A program made the position numbers and the translations under genes. A stretch of DNA of 37,414 bases from the IMG/VR virus record IMGVR_UViG_3300037420_001267, positions 1-37,414 of that record, one strand, 5' to 3'. Under the pieces are notes generated by a model that worked only from the letters and a program-made list of their open reading frames with translations, ran no database searches and had not been told where the DNA came from. Shown here in pieces: positions 13,575-37,414 of this stretch. The stretch comes from a virus. Its lineage: Duplodnaviria > Caudoviricetes. How positions within the stretch are numbered: position 1 is the stretch's first letter; each line of letters opens with the position of its first letter.

Positions 13575-14558
13575 CTATTTTTTCTTTTTCCAGGTGAATA
13601 AATCTTCTTTTTCGATGACATCCGGGTAATTGCGTTCAATCTCTTTGATTTGGTTCATAATTACCTCTTGCATTTCCGCAAGGGTTTGAGCCGCTTTTTT
13701 GGCTTCGATTTTGTTCTTCGGCAGCATCCCTCTTATGTTTTTCTTGGCATATCCCATCGAGATCAACTTGCCTTGGAACGTTTTTTCGTTCACGTCAAAT
13801 TCGGCGCGGACCATGATTTCTTCCAATGAAAGCTCCGGCTGCATAAAGAACTCTTTCAGGTCCGATTCTTTCGCTTTCTGCAAATACTCCCGTTTTTTTA
13901 GCGCTTCTTTGTGGATTTTCTTGGTTTCCAATTTCGCAAGGAAACTGCGGCGGATTAAATCCTCACCCAATTTTTCCACAAGGTCCGGGAACAGTTTTTT
14001 GATATCTCGTACCCAAAGAAAAATGTAATGAAGGTTGTAAATGGAATAGGTCTTGTTCCGAAGTCCTGCTTCCACTTCTTCCGTCGGGAAGAAATCCAGC
14101 ACTTGGCAATACTGTTCGACCGCGCGTTTGGCCAATCGAATGTCCGTGGCGAACTTGTGGAAGCTCGGTTTGCCCCATGCAATCCAGCGCTCATAGACAT
14201 ACTTGGCCCACTCATAGGTATCCCAATCCACTTGGTGCGCCTGGGCATCGGCGATGCGCTGTATCTCTTCTTGGATGCTTTTTGGTGCCGGTACGACATA
14301 AACAGGAATCTGCTTCATCCCGGCTTTACGGGCGGCGAACAATCTTCTATGGCCCGAGAGGACCACGAAAATAGACCCTTTTTTATAGGCCGTGATCGGA
14401 ATTTCCCATCCTCGGTTTTTTATCACCTGACCCAGGTCCTCTGATTTCACAGCATCGTTTTTCCTCGGGTTAAGCGGGTTTGGCGCGATATCTGAAATAT
14501 CCACCCATTCTAAATATGAACGCTGGTTGTCTAGTTTTACGATTCCTTCTCTTGTCAT
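13575..14558 (-). CDS. ParB/Srx N-terminal domain protein
   Basis: IAPNPLNPRK..PI..SGHRRLFAA..IPV. Confidence 0.8.
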   Translation of the reverse strand: MTREGIVKLDNQRSYLEWVDISDIAPNPLNPRKNDAVKSEDLGQVIKNRGWEIPITAYKKGSIFVVLSGHRRLFAARKAGMKQIPVYVVPAPKSIQEEIQRIADAQAHQVDWDTYEWAKYVYERWIAWGKPSFHKFATDIRLAKRAVEQYCQVLDFFPTEEVEAGLRNKTYSIYNLHYIFLWVRDIKKLFPDLVEKLGEDLIRRSFLAKLETKKIHKEALKKREYLQKAKESDLKEFFMQPELSLEEIMVRAEFDVNEKTFQGKLISMGYAKKNIRGMLPKNKIEAKKAAQTLAEMQEVIMNQIKEIERNYPDVIEKEDLFTWKKKK

Positions 14559-16912: not shown

Positions 16913-16941
16913 AAAAAAAAGATAGGGATTTTTCCCTATCT
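16913..16941 (-). terminator. Intrinsic terminator
   Basis: GATAGGGA-AAAA-TCCCTATC followed by T8. Confidence 0.85.
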
Positions 16942-17559
16942 CAAATCGTATGGAAGAAACACCACGCAATCCAGGTTTAACTGCTGGCATAAAGCCTTGA
17001 TGTGCTTCTCCCTTGATTCCTTTAAGGTGTAAAAAATAATCACGGGCTTATGGCCTAGATCATATTTCATGACAGGGCTGACCTCCGCATAATTTTCCAG
17101 CTTCTTTTTGTTTTCTCCCATACTTTGGGTTCGGTCCACTTCAAGGAAATGCCATTTTTCTTCGTGGATAAAACGGGCATCCGGCCGTACATATTTCTCG
17201 TTGCCGACAGCAGGCGTAAAGGCTACCTTCCTTTCCACTTCCCACGTTTTTGGGCATCCATAATGAATGTACACCTCATTTCGCATGAGGTAATGTTCCG
17301 CCTGCAAGCTCCATTTGACTTCCTTTTCACTCCCGATCCAGTCCCTACCTTCCTTATTTAGATAGTAAACATTCTTTCCGTTCAGATTTTGGACATTCAA
17401 AAACGATTTCATTTCTCTTAAAACTTTGAGTGCGTTTCTATTCGAACCTAACGCGTGGATTTTTTGAAGCTGCTCCCTTGTCGCGAATCTCAATCCGTCC
17501 AGTGTGTTCAGGATATCCTCCTGCCGGTTCAGCTTTTTCTGGTGCTGGCTCAACCGCAT
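16936..17559 (-). CDS. Replication-relaxation family protein (wHTH plus PD-(D/E)xK, MOBC-like)
   Basis: ATREQLQ..VYYL.KEG..HYLMRNE..RPDA..FLEVDR..K...Y. Confidence 0.85.
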   Translation of the reverse strand: MRLSQHQKKLNRQEDILNTLDGLRFATREQLQKIHALGSNRNALKVLREMKSFLNVQNLNGKNVYYLNKEGRDWIGSEKEVKWSLQAEHYLMRNEVYIHYGCPKTWEVERKVAFTPAVGNEKYVRPDARFIHEEKWHFLEVDRTQSMGENKKKLENYAEVSPVMKYDLGHKPVIIFYTLKESREKHIKALCQQLNLDCVVFLPYDLR

Positions 17560-18826
17560 GGGCTGTTTCTCCTTTCATCAGGACCGGCACCTGGAATTTC
17601 TCCAGCCGTTCCCACATTTCTTCGTCCGTCAATAGCGGCGCTTGCATTTGCCGCAAATCGTGGCTTTTATACAAGGCCCTTCCTTTAATGTCTCCCGGCA
17701 ATTTCTCTGCCCCCCTCATGTCAATCGCAACCTCTGAAGCATAGCCCGTCGGCAGTCGAAACGTCACTTTTGCGTCGCTGTTCATTTTGATCTGGCGCGG
17801 CAGGGTGTCGGCCGTCGGATATTGAGTGCAATAAATCAGCCTGTATCCAAGGCCCCCTCCAAGCCTGGCAATTTCGCTGAAATAATACTGACAAAGGTTC
17901 AAAAGTTCTTTCAAGGTCCCCTTTTTTTGCAATTCTTCCGGAAGCAAGTGGAGGTAAGGCTCCAATTCTGTTATATCTTTCAGCTTTCTCGTCATGAATC
18001 CTTCTGCCGCCAGCTGGGCCGCTTCGTCCACGACAATGAACACCCGCCTGTTGAGAGGGCTGTTTACGATGTTTCTAATCCCCCTTTCTTTGAAAAAGGC
18101 CAAATCCTGGTGCATCAGGTTGTGAAGATACGTAACCATCAAAAATGTCTCAATATAATCACCGGCGACCCCCTTGACTTGCCGCAGGCGTTCGTACTCC
18201 GAAAACTCCAACCCTCCTTTCAGGTCGAAAATATAAAATTCCGCATCATCCGGGTGATGTTCAATCAAATACGTCATTAAGACTTTCAAAAAGACGGTTT
18301 TCCCAAACCTCGTCACCCCGGCCACTGTCATATGGGGGATGTGTTCCATGTTCAGATAAATCACTTCCTCCAGCGTGCGCCCGAGAGGGACGGTCCACTC
18401 GACTTTCCCTGCTTCATCCTTTTTGGGAGCCGGGATTTTCTTATAAGGGAAACGTTCCGGGATATCCCAATTAAATACGCTTATCACCATATGTTTTCGC
18501 AGACCATCCAGCTTCTTGAATTCCACCAAACAAGGACGGTTCAGGCCATCCGAGAAATAAGCGCCCTTCTTTTCCAATTCTTCCAGGACTAACGCTGACA
18601 GTCCAAGCGGCAAATCATATACATACCGCGTTCCGATTTCCTTTTCTTCTTCCATTATGGGCATCTTCTTTTTGAATTTTGGAAGCTCCTTTTCGTCCCC
18701 TGTTCCCGTATAGAATCCGATGTTTTTAAAAATAGTCTGAATTTTCTTTTTATCATTCTTTTTCGGCTGCGGCATCAAGGCGGCGGCCGCTCCTATAAAG
18801 ATGGGCAATAACGCATACTCGATCAT
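17438..18826 (-). CDS. FtsK/SpoIIIE-family ATPase
   Basis: N-terminal TM segment, PHMTVAGVTRFGKT, DLKGGLEF, VDEAAQL, TQYP, GAEKL..GRA. Confidence 0.9.
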   Translation of the reverse strand: MIEYALLPIFIGAAAALMPQPKKNDKKKIQTIFKNIGFYTGTGDEKELPKFKKKMPIMEEEKEIGTRYVYDLPLGLSALVLEELEKKGAYFSDGLNRPCLVEFKKLDGLRKHMVISVFNWDIPERFPYKKIPAPKKDEAGKVEWTVPLGRTLEEVIYLNMEHIPHMTVAGVTRFGKTVFLKVLMTYLIEHHPDDAEFYIFDLKGGLEFSEYERLRQVKGVAGDYIETFLMVTYLHNLMHQDLAFFKERGIRNIVNSPLNRRVFIVVDEAAQLAAEGFMTRKLKDITELEPYLHLLPEELQKKGTLKELLNLCQYYFSEIARLGGGLGYRLIYCTQYPTADTLPRQIKMNSDAKVTFRLPTGYASEVAIDMRGAEKLPGDIKGRALYKSHDLRQMQAPLLTDEEMWERLEKFQVPVLMKGETAHAVEPAPEKAEPAGGYPEHTGRIEIRDKGAASKNPRVRFE

Positions 18827-22167: not shown

Positions 22168-25100
22168 CTAATCTTCATGTTCAGCATCTTTGTTTTCCCG
22201 CGCGAGTTTGGCGTAATACTCCATGTTGGCATAGTCGAGAGGCTCCTGCCCTGCCCCCAGCCTTGCCATATCCCGGATGGCGCGGTTGATGTTGTCAATG
22301 TGATACCCTTTTCGCTCGCCCGAAAGCGTCTTGTCGGTGCGGGCATAGGTACGCAAGTGCCGCAGCTGGGTCAGGTAATTGGCCGCATCGCGGGCGTATC
22401 TTACCTTGTCGTTTGGCTTGTTTTTAATCCCATTACGGCTGTGCTCCTCCTCCAGTTCATCTTTCTTGTCGTAAAACTTGGTGGTGGAGAACGTGTTGCC
22501 GTCCGCGGCATCCGCCACAAATGAACGCTCCAGGATGCTCCGGTCGCTCGTCGGCTTTTCCCCGTATGGGTTCGGGACAAAGGCGCTCACGCCGCTTATC
22601 GCCATGTTCCCCAGGGTTCCGCCGAGACTGCCCGCAAATTGGTCAATCTTGGTTGGCGGTACATCAAACACACCGCCTAACCATTTCGCGAAATCGGTGG
22701 TATAGTCATTCACCTGTTCTTCCGGCGGCCGGTTGTCATACGGCTGGACTGTATTTCTCCAGTTAGAGAAATCTTTCTCGGCCATCCACTCCAGGAAAGG
22801 AACGAAAGCCGTTGGCAATAAGGACGGCACCATTGAGGTCGCTAAGTTTTTGGCGAACCCTTCGAATGCGGTCCGGTCCTCCCGCATGGATTGGAAGAAT
22901 AGACGCTCCGGTATCACCTTGAACGCAAATCCCCACTCAAACGGAATCGGGATTTTTAAGAATTTTCCGTCCCCGATTGGAATATTCCAGAACAGGTCGC
23001 GTTCCCATTGTTCCAGTTCCCAATAATCATCGTCGTCCCAGTTCAAAGCGGCGAGCAGCATGGTTGGCAGGGTAATGAACAATGAACCCCTCATAAGCGA
23101 ACGCACCGGATGGTTTTTGATTTCCCGCATGAACCGGTCCGGACCTTGAAGGGCCACGTTAAAGAACAGGCTCACCCGGTTGATGTTTTTCGTGCTTTTG
23201 CCGAACCGGCTGAAATCCACGTCCACATCACGGCTTTTAATCGCCGCTTCCACTCGGTCCGCCCCTTTTCTCCGGGCCTGCTGGTATTCGGCAATCCGGA
23301 TGGTTTCGTCCGTCACCTGGGCAACATGGCGCAAGAACTTATAGGCCGGTACGGTTCCCAGCGTCAAGAACGCTTCTTTCAAGACTTTCGAGACATTCGG
23401 CTTAAACAGCATCCGGTTCTTGGCATCCCGGAAATACTCCCGCTCGATGGATAGAATGGTTGACTGGGCGCCGCCCGCGCTCATCCAATCCCAAAAAAGC
23501 GCATCTTCTTTGCCGACCGAATGTTTGACCGCTCCTTTCAACCCTCTCCACAGATCAGGAAGAAGGTGCAGATAATCGCTTGGCTTCGTATAGCTGTCAG
23601 ACTGCATCAGCATGGTTGGCAGCGCCCGGATAGGACCCCTTGGAATAAACGTCGGCGACAGCGTAATCCCGGTCCGCAGGATGTTGTTTGGAATCGCAAG
23701 CAGCTTCATCCAGTCTTTGATGGTTTCGTTGTCCATCGCCGTTAAGGCCCGGAACAATTCTTCATCGCGTACTTCGTACAGCTTTTGTTTGCCGCCGTTC
23801 CACACGGTCACGATGTTTTCGGTCATGCTTGGCGCCACAAACGGGCGGAAAATCCGGGACATTTTATTTAAGTCAAGCTCGGTGTCAGCCAAATCAATGC
23901 CCGCATCGTTCAAGACCGATAAAATATCCTTTTCCAGTTCTTCCAGGTTGAAAGTAGTCACTTTCGTTTTCGGGTCCACTTCCACCATGATATCTGCGGA
24001 ATCTTCCCCTAACAGCTTCGTAAGGGCTACCCCTACATCGTTTCGCTGGGCCAGGTTCAGGTACATGAAGGTGTTCTTCATGATGCTCTCCAGCGGGTCA
24101 ATGATGTTCCTTGCCGAACCGGTTTCTTTCATACGCTTGACCGGGTTCGCTGAATTGGCGAATTGGTGCCGCCTTGTTCCGCTTTGGCCGCCTTCCCGTT
24201 CGCCGGATTCTTCCATGACGCGGTAGAACGGCACGTAAAACGGATACTTGTCGTTCCATTCATCCACGCTCGATTCTTTCAGCACGCCGCTGTCTACGAG
24301 TTCCCTTGTGACATAATCCTGATATTCATAGAGGCTGTCGGCCGCCGCCGCATAATCGGCGCTTTCGGCATCGAGTTCCGCAATCAGCGCATTGGCATCG
24401 TTCACGGAAATCGGCGTCTTGTACTTCCCTTCATCATGAAGGGTCAAGGCGTGTTTTGCTTCCAGATAATAACGGAAGTTTTCAATGTCCGGCACGCTTT
24501 CCAGGATTTCTTTAAAGCTCGGCGCGATCTTCTGCCCGGTCGCTTCGTCGATAACGCCGTATTCCATAAAGGCTTGGATTTTTCCGGAAGTTCCCCTTGT
24601 TCTCCAGGCCAAGAGATACGGATTCTCTTTCCCTTGCAAGTCGCGGTCGCCTTTTAGCTTCTCGGTTGCGTGTTTCAGGCCGACTAATTCCTCTACCCAA
24701 TCGGCGTAATAGTCGCTCGCCTTTTTCTTTTTCTTCCGCTTTTTGCGTACATCCGTCACACCGCTAATCCGCGCTTTTGCCGACTGCCCTGTCCAGGTGT
24801 CAAACATGGCGCCAAGCTGGTTCAGGGCTTCCAGTTTCCCTTCTTCCGTCATTTTCTCGACGAATTCATCGTAAAAATCCATCCCTTGGACAGCTGAACG
24901 GTTGTACAGGTATTCGCGGACGAATTCCGCTGCCCCCTCCATTGCTTTCTCGTCATCCGACATATTGGCCGGAATGACAAGGTTCGCTTCGGCCAGGTCG
25001 ATTAATTCCTGCTGGTTTTGGGCGTTGATCAAGTCGTATTTATTTTCGAGCATATGCCCAAGCTCATGCGCCAGCACCACAAAATCAGCGAAATTCTTGG

Positions 25101-28100
25101 TGCGGATTTCATTGAATATCCGCTTATACAGCCCTTGCACCCGTCTGCGGTAGCGGCCTGTTCCGATTGGCACGTTAAACTCTTTTCGGATGTGGTTTAT
25201 GATATCCGAGCGGGAAACGGTGCCGTCCGTATCGAACGAGTTGGCGTTGTTTTGCTGTCTTGACGGCAGGAACGTGTTTTCTGTGACGCCGCCCCCTCCG
25301 TTTGGCGGTGTAGGGTCCTTGTCAAATGCCGGTTCAGGGTCCCGTTCAAACAGGAACTTCATCCGGAACTGCTCAATCGGGTCGCCTTTCTTTTTGTACT
25401 CTCCGCCGTAACGGTGCATATGCCCCCGGAAGGATTCAAATTGGCTGCTTGGAATGTTCTTTAAGTTTTTCACCAGCCAAATCTCTTTTCCGGTTTGCGG
25501 GTGCGTCGTTTTTTCCACCGATACCGGGATGCCTTTAATGGTTCGCTCGGTCGGCCCGTTGTTTGGCGGTGTATTCTGCGGCGGTGTCTCGCCCTGTTGT
25601 TGCGGTGCCGCTTGTTCCGGTTCGGCTGTTTCGTTTTTGTTCCCAGCTTTCCGTACCCCTTGGCGGCTGGTCAAAAGTTCCGTGGTCTGCGTCGTGTTTT
25701 CGCTCAGGTTCCACTTCACTTCTACCCGTGCAGGAGAACCGTCAGTTTGCGGATACAGCTTTTGGATAGGCGCGGTCACTTCTTCCCCATCGTATTCAAA
25801 AGTGATCTCGTCACCGACACGGACCTTATCGCCATTGGCAAGGGTCAGGGCGTTCTCGGCTTCCTGTCTTTCCCGTTCCGCATTTTCTTCCCTAATGCGC
25901 TCGATTTCCCGAATACGGTTGGCGAAGGTGGTTTCTGTAATGCCGACAATATCAGCCCTCCGCTCGAAATCACGGATAAAGTCGATATCCCTCATTTCGA
26001 TTGGGTTCTCTACTTTGAATACGTTCACCGTGCGGTATTGGTCGTTTTCATCGAGGTATTCCACATTTTCTTTCGTTTCCACGACTTTTGCCGCATAAAC
26101 AGAAGTCACATAATCCGGTTTTTCGTCCTTTTGTTTCTTCTTGTTTTTGGATGGAACCGCCTGGTAGTCAATGCCGACAATCGTGTATAAGTCGCGCCCA
26201 CGCTGGAATACCGTGTCAAAGGAGTTCGTGAGTTCAAACTGGCGTGCTTCTTCCCGAAGGTCCGCCACTTCCGCCATCATTTGGTCGAGCTTTTCAGCGT
26301 CAGCGAACGGCTTGCCGCCTTTTTCCTGCGCTTCTTTCAGCGCTTTTTCATTCTTCGTAATGGTTGCTTCACCGCTTGAAGAATAGGCGTGCCTGGTAAG
26401 CGGGCGAATGGCGTTGCTGATTTTCAGCATGAACCCGTTCATATCGTTTTCAAGCGCCTTGTTTAATGTCTCAGATTGGTATTCAATCTGGTTTCCGTTT
26501 GAACCGGTGAATGACAATGACAGTTTTTTGGATATTTTGGAATTGCCAAATCCATAGAAAAAGGCTTCATAGCGTAAATCCAATCCGCCAATCTTGGCAA
26601 TAAAGTTGCTGGTTTCTCTGGTTTCTTCCACATCCAAAAGCGGCTTCACTTTTTCAATCAAGGCTTCACGGAACGCTTTTCTTGGGTTCCATTCGGACGG
26701 CTTTACATCTTCCGGCTTGTTTTCTTTCGAATATACCACACCGTCCATTTCGGCGATAAAGTCGTCGCCGCTGATGTCCACCGCCGCTTTTTCCGCTTCT
26801 TTCGTCGCTTCCAGCCTACGCTTGTTATTTTCGATGATGCCCGGCATTTGTTTGATGATATTGGCGTAATTCGCCTGTTCCTTGTTATGCTCCGCTTCCA
26901 GGTAACGCAAGTTGCGCAGTTCCTTTTCCGTGGATATTAGTTTTTTCATCGCTTCGTTTCCAGTTGCTTCTGACGAGATTTCGGAGTACGACAAAATTTG
27001 TTCCGCAATTTCTTCCATTGTTCGCACTTTGGAATCCCCGCTCATGACTTGGGCGATGAATTTTGCTTTTCCCTCCAGTGTTTTCCACATTAAAGCGTCA
27101 AAAGAACTCTCTGTTACATAGGTCTTGATTTTGACCTTCGGATTATAGTTTCCTTGGCGGATAATCCGGCCTTCCCGCTGTTCAATGTCCGCAGGGCGCC
27201 ATGTAGGGTCCGCATGGTGCAGCATGGTTAATTTGTTTTGCAAGTTCATCCCGACGCCCATCTTGCCCGTTGAACCGATCAGGACGCGAATCTTTCCTTC
27301 ATTGAACAGTTCGCTCAGTTTTTTCTTTTGGTCCGGCTTGCTGTAATCATGGATAAAGGCAATTTCGTTTTCTTTGACGCCTAGCTGAATCAAACGGTCT
27401 TTCAAGTTTTGGTACATAGACGCGCTTTCTGTGTCTACCCCTTCCTCGTCGGAACCGTCCTCATTTTTATTTTTGGAATCATCGTCAGCTTTTGGCACCC
27501 CAAGGTCCATGAATACAATTTGCGTGCCGTTGTCAAAGGTCTTACCAATCTTTTCATGCATATCTTCCCGCACGGGATTTCCTTTGGCAGTACGGAAATA
27601 TTCATCCGCCACATGCTCGGCCACCATGTTCAGCTTGCTCTCTTTTTCATTTTGCGCTTTGCCGTCAATGATGCGGTAGTCAAGGGCCAGTTTCTTTCCT
27701 TCGCCGGTCAGTTTCAGCATGTTGTCCATGTACGGCTCTACGCCGTCTGCAACCGCCGCTGCCCGTTTAATCATGATTTCCAAATACGTCTTTTGGTTGT
27801 CGCTCATCGTCGCCGTGACGGTTTCGCGCTCCGCTTCCGGACGTTTCAGGTACGGCAGATCATCCGCCATCTTTACGTCCGCCACGTCCTTGAACATGTT
27901 CATGAGTTCCGGAACGTTCGTGAATTCAGCGAACCGGGTCCGTTCTACAAATTTACCGCTGGTATTCAGCTCCACCGAGTTGATGGTGGTTCCGAATTGT
28001 GCGGCCCAGCCGTCGAAATGCTCCATTCCCATTTCTTCCAGCTTCTTCGGGGCCAAATAGCGAAGCATCGTAAACATTTCTGCCACCGAGTTTGCAATCG

Positions 28101-31100
28101 GCGTACCGGTCGCAAAAACCGTTTTCCCGCCCGTTTCATTCATATGGGAGGTTTTCATGTACATATCCAGTGAACGTTTGGCGCTGGAATTGGAAAGCCC
28201 GCCGATACTCCCCATTTTGGACGAATACATCAGGTTTTTAAAGTTATGGGCTTCATCCACAAATACCGCGTCAAACCCGATTTCCTCAAAAGGAATCGCC
28301 ACGTCTTTGAAGTCTGTCTTTTTCGCATTGGCAATCCGTGTTTCCAATCGCTCTATCGCCGCTTCGATCTGCTTGACGGTGAACGAACCGCTTTCGTTTT
28401 CTTCCAGTGCCGTTCTCAGCTTATCGACTTCCCGGCGCAGGAATTCTTCCTCAAATTCCGGTGACATAGGAATGCGCTCAAAGCTCTCATAGGTCATGAT
28501 CACCACGTCATAGTCTTTGTACATCACATCGGCCAGCGACTTGTAACGCAGCATCCGGTTTTTCTCGGAATCTTTTTGCACCTTTGCGATATCTCCCTCG
28601 CCTGTTCCCGTTCCCAACACCTTGATATTGGCGTTTGGATAAGCGTGCTTAAATTCCCGCGTATGCTGTTCGAGCATGAAACTAGGCACGACAAGAACCG
28701 GCTTGCGGATAATCCCAAGTCGGCGGCCTTCCATGATGGACACTTGCATTTCCAAGGTTTTACCGGCCCCTACGACGTGCGCATAAAGGGCGTTTTGCTG
28801 TTGCAGGGTGCGCACCACCGCATCCTTTTGGTGTTTCATCAGCTTGTATTCAGGAATTAACCCTGGGAATTGCTGGCCCCCATAAAACTTTTCTCCGTCA
28901 TATGTGCGCAGAACGTAGCTGTTGAACTTGTTGTTATACAAGTCGGTCATCTGTTTGGACAGCTCCGGTGATGAACGGATGTAATTGCGGAATTCCTGCA
29001 ATAGCTGGTCGCCTTTTCGGCGCAGGACGTTGGTTAAGCGTTCCCGTTCCACTTCTAGCTTTTGGAAACTTCTTAGGTTTTCCTCTTTAATGGATGCCTT
29101 TAACGAACGCTGGTTCATCATTACTTCGATAATGTCAGCGGCACTCCATTTCGCATGGCTTGTTTTGGACCCTCTCGGGCTGATAAGGATATGGTCGTCA
29201 AGACCGTAGGTGACGGTGTTTTCATGACTTCCCCAGCGGTTATAATGGTCCGAATCTGAATCGACCGTCCACGAAGCGGTGTTGGTATTGAAGCTGACCT
29301 TTGGCTCCATGATGTTCAGCTTATCGCGCAGGAAGTCTTGATATACCTGTACCGGAATCCATTGCTGCCCGAAACGGATGCCGTCAACCACTTGGTCGGT
29401 CGTTAACCGCGTCGGCAGGATTTCCTCTAATGCCGCTTGCTGCTTTTGGTATTCAGGCCGCCCCTGAACAAATTGCAGTTTTTGGTAGATATCGCCGGAC
29501 AGATATTCGTCGGCTGGAACGTAATCGGCTTTTTCCGGGTCAAAGTACACAAGGTTCTTTTCGTCCAGTTCGTTGATCACGTTGTCCACGTCTGACTTCA
29601 TCAGGTCGGAAATCAGGAACAAGTCAATTTCCCCGCGGTTGGCAAGGGAGACAGACAACGCATTTTCAATGCTTCCCTTTACGTCAATCGAAATGTCCGG
29701 GAATTGCATACGCTTGTAGAAGAAGTCAATCTTCTCCCAATTCTTTCCTTCCTTGTGTTCCAAGGCACGCAAAGCGACAAGGGTTGCCACGTCTTTTTGG
29801 AGCGGGTCCAGCACTTTTGCTTGGTTGAAATGGCCGTGTGCTTTGACAAACGCGTCATATTGTCTGTTGAGTTTTTCCCGAATCGGTGCCAACTCGCTCG
29901 ATTTTTTGTTTTTGTCACGTTCTAATCGGCGAAGTTCTATAGCTGTATCCCGGACGGACAGCGCCCCTCTTACAAGCGCCTGGTGTTCATCCTTCACATA
30001 GAAAGGAACCCACTTGCCGTAAGTGTACTGGACGAATTTTCCTTCCCGCTCATGAACAGCCCCGTCATGGATGCCTTTTTCATACGTCGCCCAATCTTCC
30101 TCAATGGCGTTTTCCACCTGAATGATGGTATCGTCTTTGACAATCGGCACGAATGCGTTTTTGAATCCAGATAAGACCTTAGACAGCGCCTTTTTGAATT
30201 TGGATGCGAAGTTGTTGGCCACATAGCGCAATTTCTTTTTGCCCCATCGGTCCGTATCCGCTTCAATGTCGCCCGCCACTTGGTCAGGGTTCTCCACGAA
30301 ATACTTGTTAATGCGCCCTTCATCATCGCTGCTTTGCTTTGCCCCTTGATACAAGATGGAACTCTTGATATCCGCTGGTTTTATCCCCATTTGAATTTTA
30401 TCCGGGTCCTTCTTGCGGAAGAAAATAATATCTGTCGCCACGTCTGTTCCGGCGTCTTTAAAGGCTGCGTTTGGCAGGCGCACGACTTCCAGCATATCGG
30501 CATGTTCCATCAGATATTTACGTGTGTTGCTGTTTACCTCATCGGAATTGTCCATTGTATTTGTTGCGGTAATCAATACCCCGATGCCGCCTGGACGAAG
30601 TAAATCCATGCTTCGCACCAGGAAGTAGTTATGAACCTTCCTTGTGACCCATGCCATCTTGATGGCGGCCCTTGTTTTGGTTGCCGCTTTGTCTTTGTAA
30701 TCCATATCCACCACGGGAATATTTTCACCGAATGGCACGTTCCCGATCACTACGTCAAAGCTGTTATGGGCAAAAGATTTCTTTTCAAACGCGCTATGGT
30801 AGTGAACCTGTTTCGGATACAGATACTTCGTAATCAAGTATGTGATGCGGTCGCGTTCGGTCGTAATGAATTTGGTGTTCTTTTTCATTTCCTCCGGCAT
30901 GGACCCGATAAACATACCTGTTCCGACGGACGGCTCCAATACGCGCCCGCCTTTGAATCCGGCTTCTTCCAAGAAGCGGTACATTTCGCTGGCAATCTCG
31001 TAATTGGTGTAGAAAGAAGTGTTCGTCGATTTCCGCATATCGGCGTATTCTTGTTCTGTGAACAGGTCGTCGATATACTGGGCCAGTTCTTTGTATTCAT

Positions 31101-34100
31101 CCTTGGCTTTATCGAAGTATTCAGGCAGCCCGCCCCACCCTTGGTATTTCGCCAATACCTCTTTTTCCTCTGCCGTTGCTTGGCGGCTTTCTTCCTGCAA
31201 GACTTTCAGTAATTTCAGGGCGGCAATATTGTTATTGAAGCGGGTTTTCTTCCCGGATTCATAGATATTGCCCGTAATCACATGGTCTACTGGAATAGGT
31301 TTGCCATCAGCATTTCGAGGACTGTCCGGTATCTCGCCGTTAGTTCCTGCACGTTCTGATGATACTCCTTGCCCAGCGGTTGATTGTTCACGCTCTCCAA
31401 GATCAGCCGGTCCAGTTCCTCCGCCAGATTTTGTTCCGCCTTTAGAAGATACTGTTTCAGGCGTCCCGTCTTTTTGAGTTCCTTGTACATTTCCGGCTGG
31501 CGTTCCTCCAGGTACGCTTCCAGTATTGTTAGGGTTGGAAACAAGGTTTGCACCTTCTCTCTCTTTTAATTTTTTCAGGAATGGCGCTGGGTCGTCTAGC
31601 CATACCGGCCCATAAGTGCCAAATTGGAATTCATCGGCTTCTACCCGTTTGTCAAATTCACCATAAGGCATTTTTTCGCTCGCCTTTTTTGAATTCGGGT
31701 CGTACACGACGGTTACATCGCCGTTTACATCCATTGTCACTTGAATTAAGGTTCCGTCCTCTGTCAATCCCCGGCCCCATCCAAGATATTCCCTTCTCGC
31801 TTCGTTCATATCGAAAGCGCCGAGTTCCTTGTAGCGGTCTTGGAATTCCTTCGAATCATATTCCACCGGCAGGCCGAATTTCACCCGGTTCGCCACATAT
31901 ACATCAAAGGCTGGGCGAGGGTCCTCCATCGGTCCGAGAATGCTCTTTAGGAATGCTGGGTGCGCTCCTTTAGGCAACAATTTAAATAGCTGTGCTTCGT
32001 CTGCTGTGAAATTGAAATCCTTCGCAGAACGGGTTTCCCACGGCTGTTTATCTGTAACCCAGTAACCTGTGTTCGCTTTTCTTCTTAATTCTTCTTGTTT
32101 TTTACGATAACGCGGCGGCACGTTTTCATCCTCGCCCACAATGCGGATTCTGTTCACATCCAGAGGCAGACTGAACACTTTTCCTTTTTCATTCGCCAGA
32201 AGCACTTGCCCGTTTTCGTCAAAATGGTCAATGAAGCCTACCTGTTCGCGCCCGGTCCCGTCCGTGAAGGCGACTAACATATTTTCAGACAAGTCGCTCC
32301 GCTGGGTGTCGTAAAGGACCCTCTTATCCTCTTTTTCTCCTCTTGCCAGTTTCATATGTTCCGGATTGGTCACATCAAAAGGAACCAATACTTTCAATAA
32401 CTGTTCGGCTGGCATTGGGTTTACCCATTTTCCATTCTTTTCTCGGAACGTGCCATATTTTCCGCCTTTTACATCTTCGAACCATGAGGTTTGAACCGGC
32501 TGATCGCGGCGGATAAAGTCAGGCAGGAATGGCATATCCCCTTCCAGTTCCGATATATATTGAGCTTTCGGCTTGTTAAAGCGGTTAAAGTCAATATCAT
32601 CCATCGTATATCGTTCGATTTTATCGCCTGTTTGCGGCAGCTGGCTGATTTCATCGGCCAATTCTTGCAGAAGTTCCTCGTCCGTTTTCTCGGCTGGCGC
32701 TTCTTCAATTTCCGCATCCAAAAACTCGGTTCCGGTCGATTCCAGGTATTCATCCCAATCCGGGTCGTCCCAAGTTGTCATTTCCTGTGACTGCGTATAG
32801 AGGGATTTCAAAGACAAACGAAGTTTCTTGCCGTATTCGTTCATCATTTGTTCGGACCATTCCGCAAAGTCGACCACGCCGTCGGCCATCTTTTTCGCCC
32901 CGACAATGGCCGCCGCCGCATATAAATCAAGCGGTAAGGAGTTCATTCTGTCTTTGTTGTCATTCAGATACTTCTCGGCGTTCTTTGCCAGTTTATCCAA
33001 ACGAGACATTGGCTTGCTGTTACGGATTTTATCGTACTTCTGCGTAATTGGGTCCTGCTTGGTTTCCGGCGCTTTTGGTGCTGGCGCCTTGCCTTTATAC
33101 TTCTTCAAGAACGCCTGCGCTTGCTTGATTTGCTTCGGAATCTCATACGCTTCTATATCAGCATCCGTCATATCACCAAGGTCCATATTCATCCGTTCGA
33201 TGCTCCACTCGACTTCCTTAATCAGTTCTTCCATGCTGTCGAGCTTGGCACCATCGGAAACCACATCATCAAGCTGAATCTGCGTTTCACGAGGGAGTTC
33301 ATTGTAATATTTTTTGTAATCGAATGCTGTTTCTTTTGGCGCTGGTTTCGGCTGTCTTTGTTCAGATGGACGGTATTTGCTGATGAATTTTTTCAGGGCT
33401 TCAATGGCGTCCTTTTGCATTTTTGCTATTTGCTTTTCGGTTTTGCCCTCATCCCTTAATTCATCCAAATCATCGTTATATGTGTCGCCGCCCTCGATGG
33501 AATCTACCGCAAATTCAGCTTGGAAAATCAAATCCTCAATCGTATTTACACCGGCTAAAGGCTGGGTTTCCATCTTGATTAAACGATGTTTTTTCATTAA
33601 GGCTTGCGCTTCATTTACAGCCGTTTTAAACAGATCATTTTTCGGCGCGTCGATATCAAAATCGTCCAGTTCGCTCGGGCTGTCACTCATGATTTCATCC
33701 ATCATGGACGGCACCTTGCCCCCGACAACACCGGTCACTTTCATTTTTTCCGGATAGAACGCAAATACCTGGCTTTGGAGTTCCATAACCTCATACACAT
33801 GATTGTCTTTGAGGTATTGTTCCCAAGCACCATAACGGTCTTGCCCAGCTTTCCATTCAGGCGAACCTAAAGGGAAATCGTTTGAGCTGTCATTCGGGTT
33901 CCATCCTTGCGACTTATAGTAATTGTCATGGGTGAATTTGCGGTCTACATCCACCACAATCGCGTCATATCCGCGTTTTTTCAGTTCTCCGGTTTTTCTG
34001 TCCAGTAAAATAGCGCGGTCAATGCCTAGATCGTTTAAAAGTTCTTGAAGCTCGCTGTCGTTATGAAGCACGATTGGCTTTTCAAAACGCCCTTCGACTT

Positions 34101-37100
34101 GCAGGATTTTATCGTACACCGGCATACGGGCGGCTGCTCCATCAAACCAAGTTGGGTCGTCAAGATTTTGCGCCATATACAGACCGTCATTTCCGAATAG
34201 GTTGTCATGGTATTGGCGGTTGTCGTCGCCTACTGCCTTGAACCCTTCTTTTTCGATGCCTGCATAATTGGCGTTAGTGGTGCCGTGGAACCCTTTGAAG
34301 GTCATAGGCTTTCCTTCATAGCTCTTGGTGCCAAGCACATCCTTGATTTTGTCGGCTGATTTCTGGACCTTTTCATCCCGTGTATTACCTTTATCCTTAT
34401 TCACCCATCCGGAACCGTCTAAGGAATAAAGTTGCGGTACAGCATCCATTAGTTTTTTGTCCATTGTGCCGAGCATATGGAATCGGATTTTCGGATACTT
34501 ATGGACGATTTGATGCGCCCATTGTGTGCGGTTTGGCTTTCCGACAGAATTGCCAAGGGCAATATAGTCCGCGCCACGTTTGACATACCAATCAATCACG
34601 GATTCATCAGCACCATATGGATACACCGGAATAGGGTTCATGCCAATCTCTTTGAATACGTTGTACACAAATTGGCTGGCTGCTACCGCGTCGCCTGCCG
34701 CAGAACGGGAATCAAAGGAAATCACATGACTGACTAAATCCTTGTTCTTTTGCCAGAACTCAATGAAATTATGGATTTTGGTGCGTCCGCTGGAATCTTT
34801 ATCCAAGTAACCCACTTCATCGAGAATTTGTTCAGCCATTTGCTTATAATTCAGGCTGTTATTTACCGCTGTGTCGTGGATATCCAGCAGGCCGATATAT
34901 TCGCCGGTATTTGCGTATGTGAACGCCCCATTATCTAAAATGATTTCCGGCGTGTAACCGATCACGTCGATTAACTCGGTTTGCAAATCTTTGTTTTCCC
35001 AGCGTGGCATTGACAATAAGATGCGGGCTGGTTTTGCTTTTCTTACGGCTTCAATGTCTGTCGCATTTGGAGAAAGGCTGAAATACTTCCGGTCCTCTAA
35101 CAAATGCTGCGGTTCCTGTTTGTTACTATTAGTATTCTCGGATGGCGCTTTTTCTTCCTCCACCAATTCCACTTTATCCTGGTCGATATAGACCCCGCGC
35201 TTTTCAATCCCGGCCGCCACTTTCCGATACACTCGCAGTAAAACGTCGGTTGTTACACCTTCAACCGTCCACACGCCGCCATTCCAGCGGATTTTATCGC
35301 CCTCTTGATACGGGTTATTTAATTGCTTGATGATATCGTCCAGTTCTTGCTTATCCTTAACACCGTATTGAGTTTGCATTTCTTCTATGCTGTTGTCGGT
35401 GTCTTTCAGGAATTCATCAGCCGATTTCCACTTGTTTTCTTTCACTAGCGGGCGCAATTCTTCTTTGAATGCTTTCAGTTTTTTCAAGCGTTCTTTATTC
35501 TGCTTTACAAATTCATCATGTGGCGCACTTGCGTTAATTTCCCAGTCGCGGGTATTGATAGCATATAGTTTGCCATCATCGCCCTTTACAGTAGTTCCCC
35601 CAAATTCGTTTACGGTTTCTACAACCCTTTCGACGCCCGTTTGAATGTTGCGGATATGGTCGCCTGCTTTGAATTTTGGAGTATTCGGCGCTGGCGCGTT
35701 TTCTTCCTGTTCCTTACGAATGCGGCTGACATATTGTTGAAGCTGGTCAAGTTTCTTTTTATTTTTCTCTTGCCCGTAATCCAGCATCTTCCATGCGTTT
35801 GTAAACCCTCCGCCAATATGCGGTATCATACCCAAACGCGACATATATTGTTTTAGACGCTCTGGAATTGGACCATCAAAGGAAACAATATCCCTTGCGA
35901 TTTTGTCAATAGCCGGGAATGATTGGTCGGATGATTCTAATTTAATCGTACCGGCCTGAATGCGTCTTTTTACATCCGGTGCTAGAATTTGTCTCGTACC
36001 CACTAGTTTCGGGTGCGTGTAATCCTGAATGAGCAGTTCCATCGGCTTTTGGTTGGTTAAGATGTTCAGCACTTTTACTGGAATTTCTTGACCAAAGTGC
36101 ATGATATAAATGGTGTCGCCCTTTTTGATACCCTCAATTTCCGGTTCTTTTTCCGGCGCTTTTTCTTCCTGCTGTTTCAATACATCATAGGGCATCCCTG
36201 TTCGGAAGTGTCCAATAATCCCGTCTTTTTCCAAACGCTGGATAAACGCCCCTGCCGTCCAACTATCTAGCTGAAATTGCGTTTTAAGGTCCTCGAATTC
36301 TAGTTTTTCTTGGCCCATGACAAAGGTTTTGACCGTTTCATAGTCAACAGGTGCCGCTTTTTCTTCCTGTTTGCCATTCATCATGTCAAAGGTGGAAATC
36401 AATTCAGGCGCCATGACGCCCTCTTGGTAAAACTCAATCCCCATCTTGTCGTTAATGTCCCCTACACTGACGCCTTTTGGCAAGAGTAGGTCGCTGGTAT
36501 ATTCGCCCTTATTGTTTTTGCCCTTGCGGAATACCCAGGTAATCGGCTTTGGTTCTTCTCTATCCCAATGGCGCTTGATTGGGGTGAAGGTAGCCGCAAT
36601 CTGCGTCTTGGTTTCTTTGTATGCCACTTTCGGCAGCGCTTGGGTTTGGTCAATCACGCCCAGCGGTTTAGCGGTTTTCTTCGGTTCTTCTTGTTGCGGC
36701 TTGGGTTTTTCTTTTGGCGCTGGCACTACATCCCGTTTTTGCTGAACTTCTTTTTTCCATTTTAAAATTTCGCCAATGGACGGAGGTTCGTCGAACCCTT
36801 CTTCCACCATTCTTAGCTGAACATTTTCAGGTGTCACATCCAGCCTGTAACGGTAGATATCCTTAACAAATTGTTCTGCATTAAGTTTTGCTGGGGCTTT
36901 TTCCAATACCGTTATTTCATCGGTGTCCGGGCGAAGGTGTTTAGTAACCGCTTTTTGTCTTTGGTATTCCCCTTCGACTAAAGTCACAATGGTGTCCGCC
37001 GGGCGCTTGGTTCCAGGCTTACCAGCATCCCACGCATGGCCGGATACATAACCTGTTTTCGTTTCTCCGTTTTCCGTCCATTGGATATAATCGCCGCGAT

Positions 37101-37414
37101 GGTAAACTTGATAGTCGTCGCTGTTTTTGGATACCGGTTCGGCATCTACTTCGGTTTCAGAATCATCTGAATAATCGTCTTGTTCCTCAACCGGTTGCGC
37201 TTTTTCCAAAATTTCATCCAGGCTGGAATAATAGGCAAAAAACGGTTTTCCTTGCGGTTCGTCTGCATATCGCGACATAAAGCCCGTATCTTCTTTTGAT
37301 ACCACGATAAGCGGCTCGTTTTTCTTCGTAAACTTCAAGACGACTTTATCCCCAACATCCAATTTCGCTTTATTTGGATGGTTGCGTTCCATTTCGTCTT
37401 TTGTTTTCGGCGCT
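22168..37414 (-). CDS. Giant polyvalent DarB-like protein (N6-MTase, SNF2 helicase, LPD38-like C-terminus and extra enzymatic domains); probably 5'-truncated by the window
   Basis: Frame stays open upstream of ATG 37392 (..APKTKDE). Motifs: EPSVGTG 30916-30936, NVPF 30730-30741, GAGKT 28756-28770, DEAH 28246-28257, QREGR 27166-27180, HELGH 25054-25068, VDFSRFG..IPIPFEWG near the C-terminus. Confidence 0.92.
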   Translation of the reverse strand, partial: APKTKDEMERNHPNKAKLDVGDKVVLKFTKKNEPLIVVSKEDTGFMSRYADEPQGKPFFAYYSSLDEILEKAQPVEEQDDYSDDSETEVDAEPVSKNSDDYQVYHRGDYIQWTENGETKTGYVSGHAWDAGKPGTKRPADTIVTLVEGEYQRQKAVTKHLRPDTDEITVLEKAPAKLNAEQFVKDIYRYRLDVTPENVQLRMVEEGFDEPPSIGEILKWKKEVQQKRDVVPAPKEKPKPQQEEPKKTAKPLGVIDQTQALPKVAYKETKTQIAATFTPIKRHWDREEPKPITWVFRKGKNNKGEYTSDLLLPKGVSVGDINDKMGIEFYQEGVMAPELISTFDMMNGKQEEKAAPVDYETVKTFVMGQEKLEFEDLKTQFQLDSWTAGAFIQRLEKDGIIGHFRTGMPYDVLKQQEEKAPEKEPEIEGIKKGDTIYIMHFGQEIPVKVLNILTNQKPMELLIQDYTHPKLVGTRQILAPDVKRRIQAGTIKLESSDQSFPAIDKIARDIVSFDGPIPERLKQYMSRLGMIPHIGGGFTNAWKMLDYGQEKNKKKLDQLQQYVSRIRKEQEENAPAPNTPKFKAGDHIRNIQTGVERVVETVNEFGGTTVKGDDGKLYAINTRDWEINASAPHDEFVKQNKERLKKLKAFKEELRPLVKENKWKSADEFLKDTDNSIEEMQTQYGVKDKQELDDIIKQLNNPYQEGDKIRWNGGVWTVEGVTTDVLLRVYRKVAAGIEKRGVYIDQDKVELVEEEKAPSENTNSNKQEPQHLLEDRKYFSLSPNATDIEAVRKAKPARILLSMPRWENKDLQTELIDVIGYTPEIILDNGAFTYANTGEYIGLLDIHDTAVNNSLNYKQMAEQILDEVGYLDKDSSGRTKIHNFIEFWQKNKDLVSHVISFDSRSAAGDAVAASQFVYNVFKEIGMNPIPVYPYGADESVIDWYVKRGADYIALGNSVGKPNRTQWAHQIVHKYPKIRFHMLGTMDKKLMDAVPQLYSLDGSGWVNKDKGNTRDEKVQKSADKIKDVLGTKSYEGKPMTFKGFHGTTNANYAGIEKEGFKAVGDDNRQYHDNLFGNDGLYMAQNLDDPTWFDGAAARMPVYDKILQVEGRFEKPIVLHNDSELQELLNDLGIDRAILLDRKTGELKKRGYDAIVVDVDRKFTHDNYYKSQGWNPNDSSNDFPLGSPEWKAGQDRYGAWEQYLKDNHVYEVMELQSQVFAFYPEKMKVTGVVGGKVPSMMDEIMSDSPSELDDFDIDAPKNDLFKTAVNEAQALMKKHRLIKMETQPLAGVNTIEDLIFQAEFAVDSIEGGDTYNDDLDELRDEGKTEKQIAKMQKDAIEALKKFISKYRPSEQRQPKPAPKETAFDYKKYYNELPRETQIQLDDVVSDGAKLDSMEELIKEVEWSIERMNMDLGDMTDADIEAYEIPKQIKQAQAFLKKYKGKAPAPKAPETKQDPITQKYDKIRNSKPMSRLDKLAKNAEKYLNDNKDRMNSLPLDLYAAAAIVGAKKMADGVVDFAEWSEQMMNEYGKKLRLSLKSLYTQSQEMTTWDDPDWDEYLESTGTEFLDAEIEEAPAEKTDEELLQELADEISQLPQTGDKIERYTMDDIDFNRFNKPKAQYISELEGDMPFLPDFIRRDQPVQTSWFEDVKGGKYGTFREKNGKWVNPMPAEQLLKVLVPFDVTNPEHMKLARGEKEDKRVLYDTQRSDLSENMLVAFTDGTGREQVGFIDHFDENGQVLLANEKGKVFSLPLDVNRIRIVGEDENVPPRYRKKQEELRRKANTGYWVTDKQPWETRSAKDFNFTADEAQLFKLLPKGAHPAFLKSILGPMEDPRPAFDVYVANRVKFGLPVEYDSKEFQDRYKELGAFDMNEARREYLGWGRGLTEDGTLIQVTMDVNGDVTVVYDPNSKKASEKMPYGEFDKRVEADEFQFGTYGPVWLDDPAPFLKKLKEREGANLVSNPNNTGSVPGGTPAGNVQGTQKDGTPETVSSKGGTKSGGGTGPADLGEREQSTAGQGVSSERAGTNGEIPDSPRNADGKPIPVDHVITGNIYESGKKTRFNNNIAALKLLKVLQEESRQATAEEKEVLAKYQGWGGLPEYFDKAKDEYKELAQYIDDLFTEQEYADMRKSTNTSFYTNYEIASEMYRFLEEAGFKGGRVLEPSVGTGMFIGSMPEEMKKNTKFITTERDRITYLITKYLYPKQVHYHSAFEKKSFAHNSFDVVIGNVPFGENIPVVDMDYKDKAATKTRAAIKMAWVTRKVHNYFLVRSMDLLRPGGIGVLITATNTMDNSDEVNSNTRKYLMEHADMLEVVRLPNAAFKDAGTDVATDIIFFRKKDPDKIQMGIKPADIKSSILYQGAKQSSDDEGRINKYFVENPDQVAGDIEADTDRWGKKKLRYVANNFASKFKKALSKVLSGFKNAFVPIVKDDTIIQVENAIEEDWATYEKGIHDGAVHEREGKFVQYTYGKWVPFYVKDEHQALVRGALSVRDTAIELRRLERDKNKKSSELAPIREKLNRQYDAFVKAHGHFNQAKVLDPLQKDVATLVALRALEHKEGKNWEKIDFFYKRMQFPDISIDVKGSIENALSVSLANRGEIDLFLISDLMKSDVDNVINELDEKNLVYFDPEKADYVPADEYLSGDIYQKLQFVQGRPEYQKQQAALEEILPTRLTTDQVVDGIRFGQQWIPVQVYQDFLRDKLNIMEPKVSFNTNTASWTVDSDSDHYNRWGSHENTVTYGLDDHILISPRGSKTSHAKWSAADIIEVMMNQRSLKASIKEENLRSFQKLEVERERLTNVLRRKGDQLLQEFRNYIRSSPELSKQMTDLYNNKFNSYVLRTYDGEKFYGGQQFPGLIPEYKLMKHQKDAVVRTLQQQNALYAHVVGAGKTLEMQVSIMEGRRLGIIRKPVLVVPSFMLEQHTREFKHAYPNANIKVLGTGTGEGDIAKVQKDSEKNRMLRYKSLADVMYKDYDVVIMTYESFERIPMSPEFEEEFLRREVDKLRTALEENESGSFTVKQIEAAIERLETRIANAKKTDFKDVAIPFEEIGFDAVFVDEAHNFKNLMYSSKMGSIGGLSNSSAKRSLDMYMKTSHMNETGGKTVFATGTPIANSVAEMFTMLRYLAPKKLEEMGMEHFDGWAAQFGTTINSVELNTSGKFVERTRFAEFTNVPELMNMFKDVADVKMADDLPYLKRPEAERETVTATMSDNQKTYLEIMIKRAAAVADGVEPYMDNMLKLTGEGKKLALDYRIIDGKAQNEKESKLNMVAEHVADEYFRTAKGNPVREDMHEKIGKTFDNGTQIVFMDLGVPKADDDSKNKNEDGSDEEGVDTESASMYQNLKDRLIQLGVKENEIAFIHDYSKPDQKKKLSELFNEGKIRVLIGSTGKMGVGMNLQNKLTMLHHADPTWRPADIEQREGRIIRQGNYNPKVKIKTYVTESSFDALMWKTLEGKAKFIAQVMSGDSKVRTMEEIAEQILSYSEISSEATGNEAMKKLISTEKELRNLRYLEAEHNKEQANYANIIKQMPGIIENNKRRLEATKEAEKAAVDISGDDFIAEMDGVVYSKENKPEDVKPSEWNPRKAFREALIEKVKPLLDVEETRETSNFIAKIGGLDLRYEAFFYGFGNSKISKKLSLSFTGSNGNQIEYQSETLNKALENDMNGFMLKISNAIRPLTRHAYSSSGEATITKNEKALKEAQEKGGKPFADAEKLDQMMAEVADLREEARQFELTNSFDTVFQRGRDLYTIVGIDYQAVPSKNKKKQKDEKPDYVTSVYAAKVVETKENVEYLDENDQYRTVNVFKVENPIEMRDIDFIRDFERRADIVGITETTFANRIREIERIREENAERERQEAENALTLANGDKVRVGDEITFEYDGEEVTAPIQKLYPQTDGSPARVEVKWNLSENTTQTTELLTSRQGVRKAGNKNETAEPEQAAPQQQGETPPQNTPPNNGPTERTIKGIPVSVEKTTHPQTGKEIWLVKNLKNIPSSQFESFRGHMHRYGGEYKKKGDPIEQFRMKFLFERDPEPAFDKDPTPPNGGGGVTENTFLPSRQQNNANSFDTDGTVSRSDIINHIRKEFNVPIGTGRYRRRVQGLYKRIFNEIRTKNFADFVVLAHELGHMLENKYDLINAQNQQELIDLAEANLVIPANMSDDEKAMEGAAEFVREYLYNRSAVQGMDFYDEFVEKMTEEGKLEALNQLGAMFDTWTGQSAKARISGVTDVRKKRKKKKKASDYYADWVEELVGLKHATEKLKGDRDLQGKENPYLLAWRTRGTSGKIQAFMEYGVIDEATGQKIAPSFKEILESVPDIENFRYYLEAKHALTLHDEGKYKTPISVNDANALIAELDAESADYAAAADSLYEYQDYVTRELVDSGVLKESSVDEWNDKYPFYVPFYRVMEESGEREGGQSGTRRHQFANSANPVKRMKETGSARNIIDPLESIMKNTFMYLNLAQRNDVGVALTKLLGEDSADIMVEVDPKTKVTTFNLEELEKDILSVLNDAGIDLADTELDLNKMSRIFRPFVAPSMTENIVTVWNGGKQKLYEVRDEELFRALTAMDNETIKDWMKLLAIPNNILRTGITLSPTFIPRGPIRALPTMLMQSDSYTKPSDYLHLLPDLWRGLKGAVKHSVGKEDALFWDWMSAGGAQSTILSIEREYFRDAKNRMLFKPNVSKVLKEAFLTLGTVPAYKFLRHVAQVTDETIRIAEYQQARRKGADRVEAAIKSRDVDVDFSRFGKSTKNINRVSLFFNVALQGPDRFMREIKNHPVRSLMRGSLFITLPTMLLAALNWDDDDYWELEQWERDLFWNIPIGDGKFLKIPIPFEWGFAFKVIPERLFFQSMREDRTAFEGFAKNLATSMVPSLLPTAFVPFLEWMAEKDFSNWRNTVQPYDNRPPEEQVNDYTTDFAKWLGGVFDVPPTKIDQFAGSLGGTLGNMAISGVSAFVPNPYGEKPTSDRSILERSFVADAADGNTFSTTKFYDKKDELEEEHSRNGIKNKPNDKVRYARDAANYLTQLRHLRTYARTDKTLSGERKGYHIDNINRAIRDMARLGAGQEPLDYANMEYYAKLARENKDAEHED
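31287..31553 (-). CDS. TnpV-like protein nested in the +1 frame of the giant gene
   Basis: YLEERQPEMYKELKKTGRLKQYL...EQ...E.LDRLI resembles TnpV. GAAGGTG RBS before an alternative TTG start at 31544. Confidence 0.65.
   Translation of the reverse strand: MQTLFPTLTILEAYLEERQPEMYKELKKTGRLKQYLLKAEQNLAEELDRLILESVNNQPLGKEYHQNVQELTARYRTVLEMLMANLFQ

Follow-up and report, generated by a model that had tools for sequence, protein, structure and literature searches.

Giant polyvalent proteins of the DarB type combine several DNA-directed domains in one chain, and the locus described here raises the question whether such a protein can also carry a guanine-exchange enzyme and, if so, on which nucleic acid that enzyme would act. 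The window, i.e., the whole stretch of DNA analysed, is an entire virus record of 37,414 bp, linear and estimated to be 67% complete. The original prediction, made from the letters alone, placed in it a tRNA-guanine transglycosylase (TGT)/DpdA-like domain within a giant open reading frame (ORF). As judged by sequence, residues 767–1022 of this ORF are confirmed as a TGT/DpdA-type barrel, and its fusion to giant proteins is real and recurrent, a known kind of enzyme in an unexpected setting.

The Giant Protein and Its Genomic Setting

The giant ORF spans 22168..37414 on the minus strand with its frame open to the contig end and matches the DarB-like family phrog_10089 (E 0). Read from the first ATG at 37392, it encodes 5,074 aa (37392..22168). 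The contig end removes the first 852 residues, which are present in a full-length version of 5,926 aa (P0003) carried by 10 contigs, the longest of 62,540 bp, and differing from the window protein at 1 residue over the common 5,074.

Downstream of the giant gene lie genes for an amidase-SPOR endolysin, FtsK, Replic_Relax, recombination and replication functions and the small terminase (37 pieces, Pfam). The giant gene stands ahead of the lysis, FtsK and Rep genes, which is the slot of gp20 in Bacillus phage Page; gp20 of the Bacillus Pagevirus phages follows the tail genes, precedes the holins, endolysin, FtsK and Rep, and is 24–25% identical to the C-terminal part of the giant. Since the C-terminus resembles Pagevirus gp20 and the gene order is alike, we infer a Bacillales host. 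The FtsK and Replic_Relax genes form a pair after the lysis genes (16936–18826, minus strand), as in Pagevirus phages. A RadC-like JAB gene (2944–3402, plus strand; Pfam) belongs to a short plus-strand block opposing the main orientation, and a ParB-type gene at 13575–14558 is unlinked. The sequencing runs listed as containing window DNA, all possible sources of the window, are soil and rhizosphere metagenomes in 11 of 11 cases, with no RNA dataset among them.

The other domains of the giant also lie on the minus strand. Directly after the barrel comes an ADP-ribosyltransferase-like (ART-PolyVal-like) region with an HGT motif (33730..34320), a lead drawn from an ESM Atlas score of 0.93 to a cluster with PF18760 in 20% of its members; the region has no Pfam match. 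It is followed by an N6-adenine methyltransferase with an NVPF motif (30373..31272; Pfam Eco57I, E 2e-8), both lobes of an SNF2 ATPase/translocase (27151..28803; SNF2-rel_dom, E 4e-11; Helicase_C, E 2e-7), a HELGH zincin-type metallopeptidase motif read from the sequence (25054..25068) and an LPD38 domain (22558..23034; Pfam, E 1.3e-33). A processing role has been proposed for the HEXXH-type peptidase of polyvalent proteins (PMC5512222). An FtsK-gamma-like DNA-binding segment was noted at residues 332–410 (about 36170–36400, minus strand; phrog_13700, E 1.5e-5), and FtsK_gamma occurs also in two related giants (P0006 and P0017).

The methylase-SNF2 dyad, the peptidase and the LPD domains place the giant among the DarB-like polyvalent proteins typified by P1 DarB (PMC5512222), with which it also shares the ART-like domain and the late-gene position. 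It differs from them in the TGT domain, absent from the main text of PMC5512222, the supplements of which may list it as an LPD. As far as that main text goes, this agrees with the prediction that TGT is not a described polyvalent module, and literature searches found no report of a TGT barrel fused into a polyvalent or virion giant.

Sequence and Fold of the Barrel

The barrel cassette (residues 767–1022, 35094..34327, minus strand) takes in a short C-terminal helix; it is supported by sequence, profile and fold, and its ends were taken from variant contigs. The range first proposed, 34390–35092, is two bases out of frame. The motifs reported in TGT order are all in frame in the 5,074-aa minus-strand ORF: ILDNGAF (residues 818–824, 34941–34921; the earlier coordinates, 34935–34921, are exactly those of DNGAF), PIPVY (from residue 920, 34635–34621), YIALG (from residue 943, 34566–34552), FHMLG (from residue 971, 34482–34468, the 34479 given before being the start of HMLG) and YSLDGSGW (from residue 989, 34428–34405).

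The family assignment, which agrees with the one predicted, is carried by profile comparisons. PHROG 887 matches the barrel over its residues 4–231 (E 8.3e-17) and PHROG 7068 at E 2.6e-12. Scored against a profile that left it out and was made from 68 viral DpdA proteins, the barrel reaches 91.9 bits versus at most 8.1 for its shuffled versions (2,000 shuffles, 1,358 scored) and −2.2 for the reversed sequence, by which a chance string of motifs was rejected. In tblastn searches 174–177 of 50,697 phage records match; the rows listed are almost all annotated as queuine tRNA-ribosyltransferase or DpdA, and of 60 rows drawn from all parts of the ranking, 59 are unannotated or DpdA-type loci, the remaining one being a chance helicase match. 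A profile including the barrel finds DpdA 7ui4 in the PDB (E 2.3e-4).

No Pfam, NCBIfam or PADLOC model matches the barrel, phmmer with the single domain found nothing in the PDB, word-indexed protein searches with the isolated barrel returned nothing (the length-matched region search alone gave a match), and pattern scans of viral, metagenome and genome contigs turned up no close relative. PF23859 (ESM Atlas, 0.90) has no Pfam-scan match in the barrel, and a genome search for it was negative with its control positive nowhere.

An AlphaFold2 model made from the DpdA-profile alignment is a barrel (pLDDT 77.7), for which the top Foldseek match is TGT in the PDB and, in a comparison with viral models, a phage queuine tRNA-ribosyltransferase (E 1.7e-9). 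The original prediction had proposed comparing the fold with TGT, arcTGT, DpdA and Cap10. In a VIA-align comparison covering 48,161 chains the best match was arcTGT (Z 12.8, rmsd 3.5, 209 aligned), and DpdA 7ui4 (Z 11.6, rmsd 4.0, 209 aligned), TGT (Z 11.6), QTRT2 (Z 11.2) and Cap10 (9ntn, Z 10.6) were also matched; the unrelated TIM barrel BexX reached Z 11.0, which leaves a thin margin. Because of this margin and the partly circular origin of the model, the family call rests on sequence. A single-sequence model was poor (pLDDT 49.8), with transaldolases ranked level with TGT.

Active Site and Base Pocket

Roles of the residues are those given for DpdA of S. Montevideo in PMC10164549, aligned by motif through phage DpdA1. 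D820 (34930..34935, together with N821) corresponds to the general acid/base Asp95, D894 (34711..34713) to the base-reading Asp130 and D992 (34417..34419) to the nucleophile Asp256, while F824 and L974 match Phe99 and Leu236. All three active-site aspartates are thus kept, and three pocket positions are changed: N821 stands for Ser, P925 (34618..34620) for the base-reading His (His181 of DpdA) and N948 for Gly in the Gly-rich loop that reads the 7-substituent (G947-N948, 34549..34554), where most relatives have Gly-Gly. The retained catalytic aspartates (D820 and D992), the loss of His and the DNG in place of DSG had been predicted correctly; N948, the ART-like domain, the truncation of the ORF and the retention of His and Ser in close relatives had been missed.

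The pocket His is present in 66 of 68 viral DpdA and in 100 of 102 more distant matches. Ser after the first Asp stands in 94 of these 102; the corresponding count in viral DpdA (68/68) is biased, as the scan pattern required Ser. An assembly error behind N821 and P925 was rejected, as contigs of seven runs, possibly the source of the window, give no alternative letter wherever they cover the barrel.

A Clade of Embedded and Stand-Alone Barrels

The length-matched search (297 candidates) found one other barrel-bearing giant, P0002 (5,338 aa), with 41% identity in the domain. A profile built from both giants and run over 1.84 billion representatives gave 833 matches at E ≤ 0.001; the best 150 of these include 6 proteins longer than 4,000 aa, all within the top 15, and among the matches listed barrel copies occur in six other giants of about 4,200–5,300 aa. 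The survey of fusions suggested with the original prediction thus shows the barrel recurring in seven giants.

In full-length giants the barrel lies at residues 1,170–1,620, upstream of the methylase, and in six of the seven a methylase and a helicase-type motor follow it. The motor is of the SNF2 type in two and of the Strawberry-notch type in four; in P0016, which has the barrel, neither methylase nor motor was detected. The predicted combination of methylase, SNF2 and barrel holds for the window ORF, and SNF2 is not constant across the giants, so an obligatory coupling to it was rejected. DdrB-ParB follows the barrel in two giants, and the ART-like domain adjoins it in two.

Residues were compared over 131 of 152 proteins, P0003 and those of <200 or 421–1,000 aa being dropped. 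The positions of D820, D894 and D992 are aspartate in all seven giant copies, four of which keep both Ser and His; Asn appears in the other three, and these same three carry Pro, Gln or Ala in place of His. The 22 near stand-alone proteins have His at this site in 14 cases, Gly in 7 and Gln in 1.

In a quick tree of 71 rows the seven giants form a clade with 16 stand-alone proteins (SH-aLRT 93), separate from the CAjan (100) and mycobacteriophage (96) groups. In a careful tree of 23 rows the window copy (P0001) pairs with P0002 (97/92) and P0016 with P0017 (100/99). Constraining the three Asn copies to a single group gave an AU p of 0.042, to be taken as borderline because the Asn group was named after the first tree and a simpler model was used. 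The pairing of Asn with loss of His therefore probably arose twice, once in P0001 and once in P0016/P0017, a pattern that points more to a change of substrate than to decay. A single origin of the giant fusion was not rejected (AU p 0.155).

The clade is uncatalogued, with stand-alone members on Bacillales mobile elements and others inside giants. One stand-alone member lies in a Paenibacillus element, where its neighbours are helicase, methylase and clamp-like genes (labels read from ORFs). Bacillaceae plasmid copies at L118:9001-9813 and L119:9001-9952 look split by frame breaks, and the latter adjoins Rad52, SSB and ArdC-like genes. The ORFs L055:1445-2611 and L120:8410-9537 represent another DpdA-like group, which is extended at the N-terminus and has no que genes in its vicinity; the L055 protein also shows the His-to-Pro change. 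A protein of 767 aa (P0034) has the same barrel and a weak Phage_tail_S match, possibly another virion-linked fusion, and four viral loci (L029, L044, L045, and L049) hold two DpdA-like ORFs each.

Precursor Genes and the C-Terminal Tail

QueC, QueD and FolE were found in none of five records (the window contig, 67% complete; the Paenibacillus element; and three plasmids, one of which carries a different DpdA-like group), in a search whose controls were positive in 13, 10, and 11 of 14 genomes, B. subtilis included. The result agrees with the predicted lack of folE and queCDE in the window and covers 37 kb of a genome of which about 25 kb lies outside the record. At DpdA1-type viral loci a que or folE gene occurs within the fetched flanks in 73 of 80.

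The tail after the nucleophile measures 25–52 aa in the barrel clade versus a median of 96 in DpdA1, which would reduce the DNA-binding surface of the clade. A QLxLF-like C-terminal motif, QLxLF being the clamp-binding consensus, occurs in 42 of 50 DpdA1 versus 50 of 938 background ORFs; near stand-alone proteins have it in 3 of 14 cases, and it comes after the barrel in none of the seven embedded copies. Several DpdA1 loci (within L001–L091) adjoin a clamp gene. DpdA1 may ride the replication clamp, a link for which no report was found by title or abstract start.

A Cassette Exchanged within the Population

The assembly of run X11 splits into two branches between 35242 and 34297. The branch with the barrel has 946 nt at a depth of 63.3; the branch without it has 469 nt (322 bases of which are not shown) at a depth of 5.65, rejoins at 34326 and is in frame and 159 codons shorter, so that the barrel allele is about 11 times as deep. 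Runs X8 and X9 share the left junction and X7 breaks at both of these points, whereas X1, X6, and X10 give no sign of the fork; all these runs may be one campaign. Read by hand from a loose end of 30 nt, the short allele keeps to the linker as far as about residue 761 before it diverges, from which it appears that the barrel is exchanged as a unit. A second minor allele in X11, further upstream, replaces 889 bases (35517–36407) by 430 others, and the two together indicate that modules in the giant's N-terminal third are being shuffled in the population. Given the minor allele and the two plasmid copies that look broken, the barrel seems dispensable.

Relation to Known Systems

The nearest characterised sequence relatives of the barrel, at about 25–30% identity, are the phage DpdA1 proteins of the CAjan, Rosebush and 9g type (PMC6884629), which have the same motif order, the three aspartates and the Phe/hydrophobic base sandwich. 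The barrel differs from them in its setting inside a giant, its three substitutions (Ser to Asn, His to Pro, Gly to Asn), its short tail without a QLxLF-like end and the lack of folE/que neighbours within 37 kb; membership in DpdA1 was rejected on its separate clade in the quick tree and on P925.

Bacterial DpdA (S. Montevideo, 7ui4; PMC10164549) has the fold and catalytic residues in common with the barrel and possibly the need for an ATP motor. The barrel is by contrast viral, about 250 aa long and in the same chain as an SNF2 motor, and is not beside dpdB-K, no such cluster being named among the window ORFs in the Pfam and PHROGs scan. Neither NF041059 nor the PADLOC DpdA models match it, and membership in the dpd system was rejected on that ground. 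What 10.1101/2023.04.13.536721 sets out of the five DpdA subfamilies mentions no fusion to a virion protein.

tRNA-guanine transglycosylases possess a Cys/His zinc subdomain. Residues 767–1022 contain no cysteine and have no Pfam TGT hit, and membership in that family was rejected. Like the barrel, the CBASS protein Cap10 (9ntn; 10.1101/2025.04.06.647259) is a TGT barrel reused in phage-host conflict; unlike it, Cap10 belongs to host defence, is encoded in a CBASS operon and has Lys where the pocket His would stand, and the window lacks both that context and that Lys, so Cap10 membership was also rejected. A TGT has been placed in a host BREX-related system as well (PMC12839542). The dpdA-only phages Orion and 7-11 (group 3, PMC6884629) likewise have no precursor genes and, if active, would rely on the host; theirs are stand-alone genes, whereas the barrel is a module of a likely virion protein.

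Proposed Function and Alternatives

The reading we favour, with about an even chance of being right, is that the barrel exchanges guanines on entering phage DNA for a host 7-deazaguanine or related purine and so hides restriction sites. The giant would be packaged and injected, as its gene position and the analogy to DarB and to gp47 of phage phi24B suggest: P1 DarB is described as a head protein protecting DNA in cis (PMC5512222), and the LPD38 giant gp47 as virion-borne (10.64898/2026.04.10.717836). D992 would attack C1′ with D820 as acid/base, as in DpdA. The linked methylase-translocase would keep the barrel on the incoming DNA, a tethering role that DpdB or the replication clamp may play for other DpdAs; bacterial DpdA requires its ATPase (PMC10164549). 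The incoming base would be supplied by the Bacillales host, in line with the report that in E. coli the DpdA of 9g suffices to insert host preQ0 (PMC6884629). N821, P925, and N948 may retune which base goes in, and the inserted base may therefore not be preQ0 in the window copy. Against exchange count the lost pocket His, the reduced DNA surface, the dispensability of the barrel, P0016 with neither methylase nor motor detected and the weak modification of dpdA-only phages, reported as none in Orion and 50 per million nucleotides in 7-11 (PMC6884629). In its favour, the same source gives DpdA2 as lacking the pocket His, with nt-1 DNA yet modified at a low level. A bolder version, in which barrels of the clade, moved as a cassette into and out of ejection giants and delivered with the virion, edit the genome at entry using metabolites of the host and the twice-arisen versions with Asn and no His insert or excise a base beyond the known 7-deazaguanines, is speculative and rather doubtful.

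Retention of the nucleophile and acid/base aspartates beside a changed incoming-base pocket would suit removal of guanine or 7-deazaguanine that leaves an abasic site or a covalent adduct, with no base supplied. Such excision or trapping, which would damage host DNA or strip host Dpd self-marks, would also fit the absence of precursor genes with the clade in the records searched and the ART-like effector adjoining the barrel. The base-holding Asp894, Phe824, and Leu974 are kept, however, the pocket is canonical in four of the seven giant copies, and the literature, to the extent covered, yielded no characterised TGT-family glycosylase; this reading, its consequences for host DNA included, is unlikely.

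We hold it similarly improbable that the window copy is a passenger, decaying or without catalysis, that at most binds DNA or a base within a fast-shuffling protein. The three pocket substitutions, the in-frame allele without the barrel, the plasmid homologues L118 and L119 that look split and the match to QTRT2 (Z 11.2), a non-catalytic TGT, point that way, but all three aspartates are intact, Asn paired with loss of His is found in P0001 and, as a separate event, in P0016/P0017 (AU p 0.042, borderline), and the barrel allele prevails in X11 (63.3 versus 5.65).

A tRNA target, i.e., base exchange altering host queuosine tRNAs at the start of infection, was considered because the top solved fold matches are tRNA TGTs and the HEXXH peptidase could, following the proposal in PMC5512222, free the barrel from the DNA-bound part. 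tRNA looks less likely than DNA, given that the nearest characterised relatives are the DNA-acting phage DpdA1 and that a cysteine for the zinc subdomain is lacking; with no Pfam TGT match either, and with few virion copies expected to modify little tRNA, it is very unlikely. Just as improbable is a decoy or sponge against a defence that depends on 7-deazaguanine, e.g., type IV CBASS (Cap10/CdnD) or Dpd restriction, for although Cap10 is described as a TGT fold remodelled to bind a protein-linked base (10.1101/2025.04.06.647259), matches at Z 10.6 (9ntn), and a short tail would suit a non-nucleic-acid ligand, there is no sequence link to Cap10 (no PADLOC hit), the residue at the His position differs (Lys in Cap10) and the context around the giant gives no support.

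Significance

Pocket variants with His, Pro, Gln, Ala or Gly occur naturally in the clade, one natural allele lacks the barrel, and a transglycosylase of 250 residues whose pocket has changed could serve as a compact tool for labelling DNA. According to the literature consulted, phage DNA receives its 7-deazaguanine marks from stand-alone DpdA once it has been replicated. If exchange at entry is true, a virion-borne barrel would instead disguise the DNA as it enters the cell with a base made by the host, base exchange would be added to the methylation already known for DarB-type proteins, and a precursor-less TGT clade on Bacillales phages and plasmids would gain a testable role.
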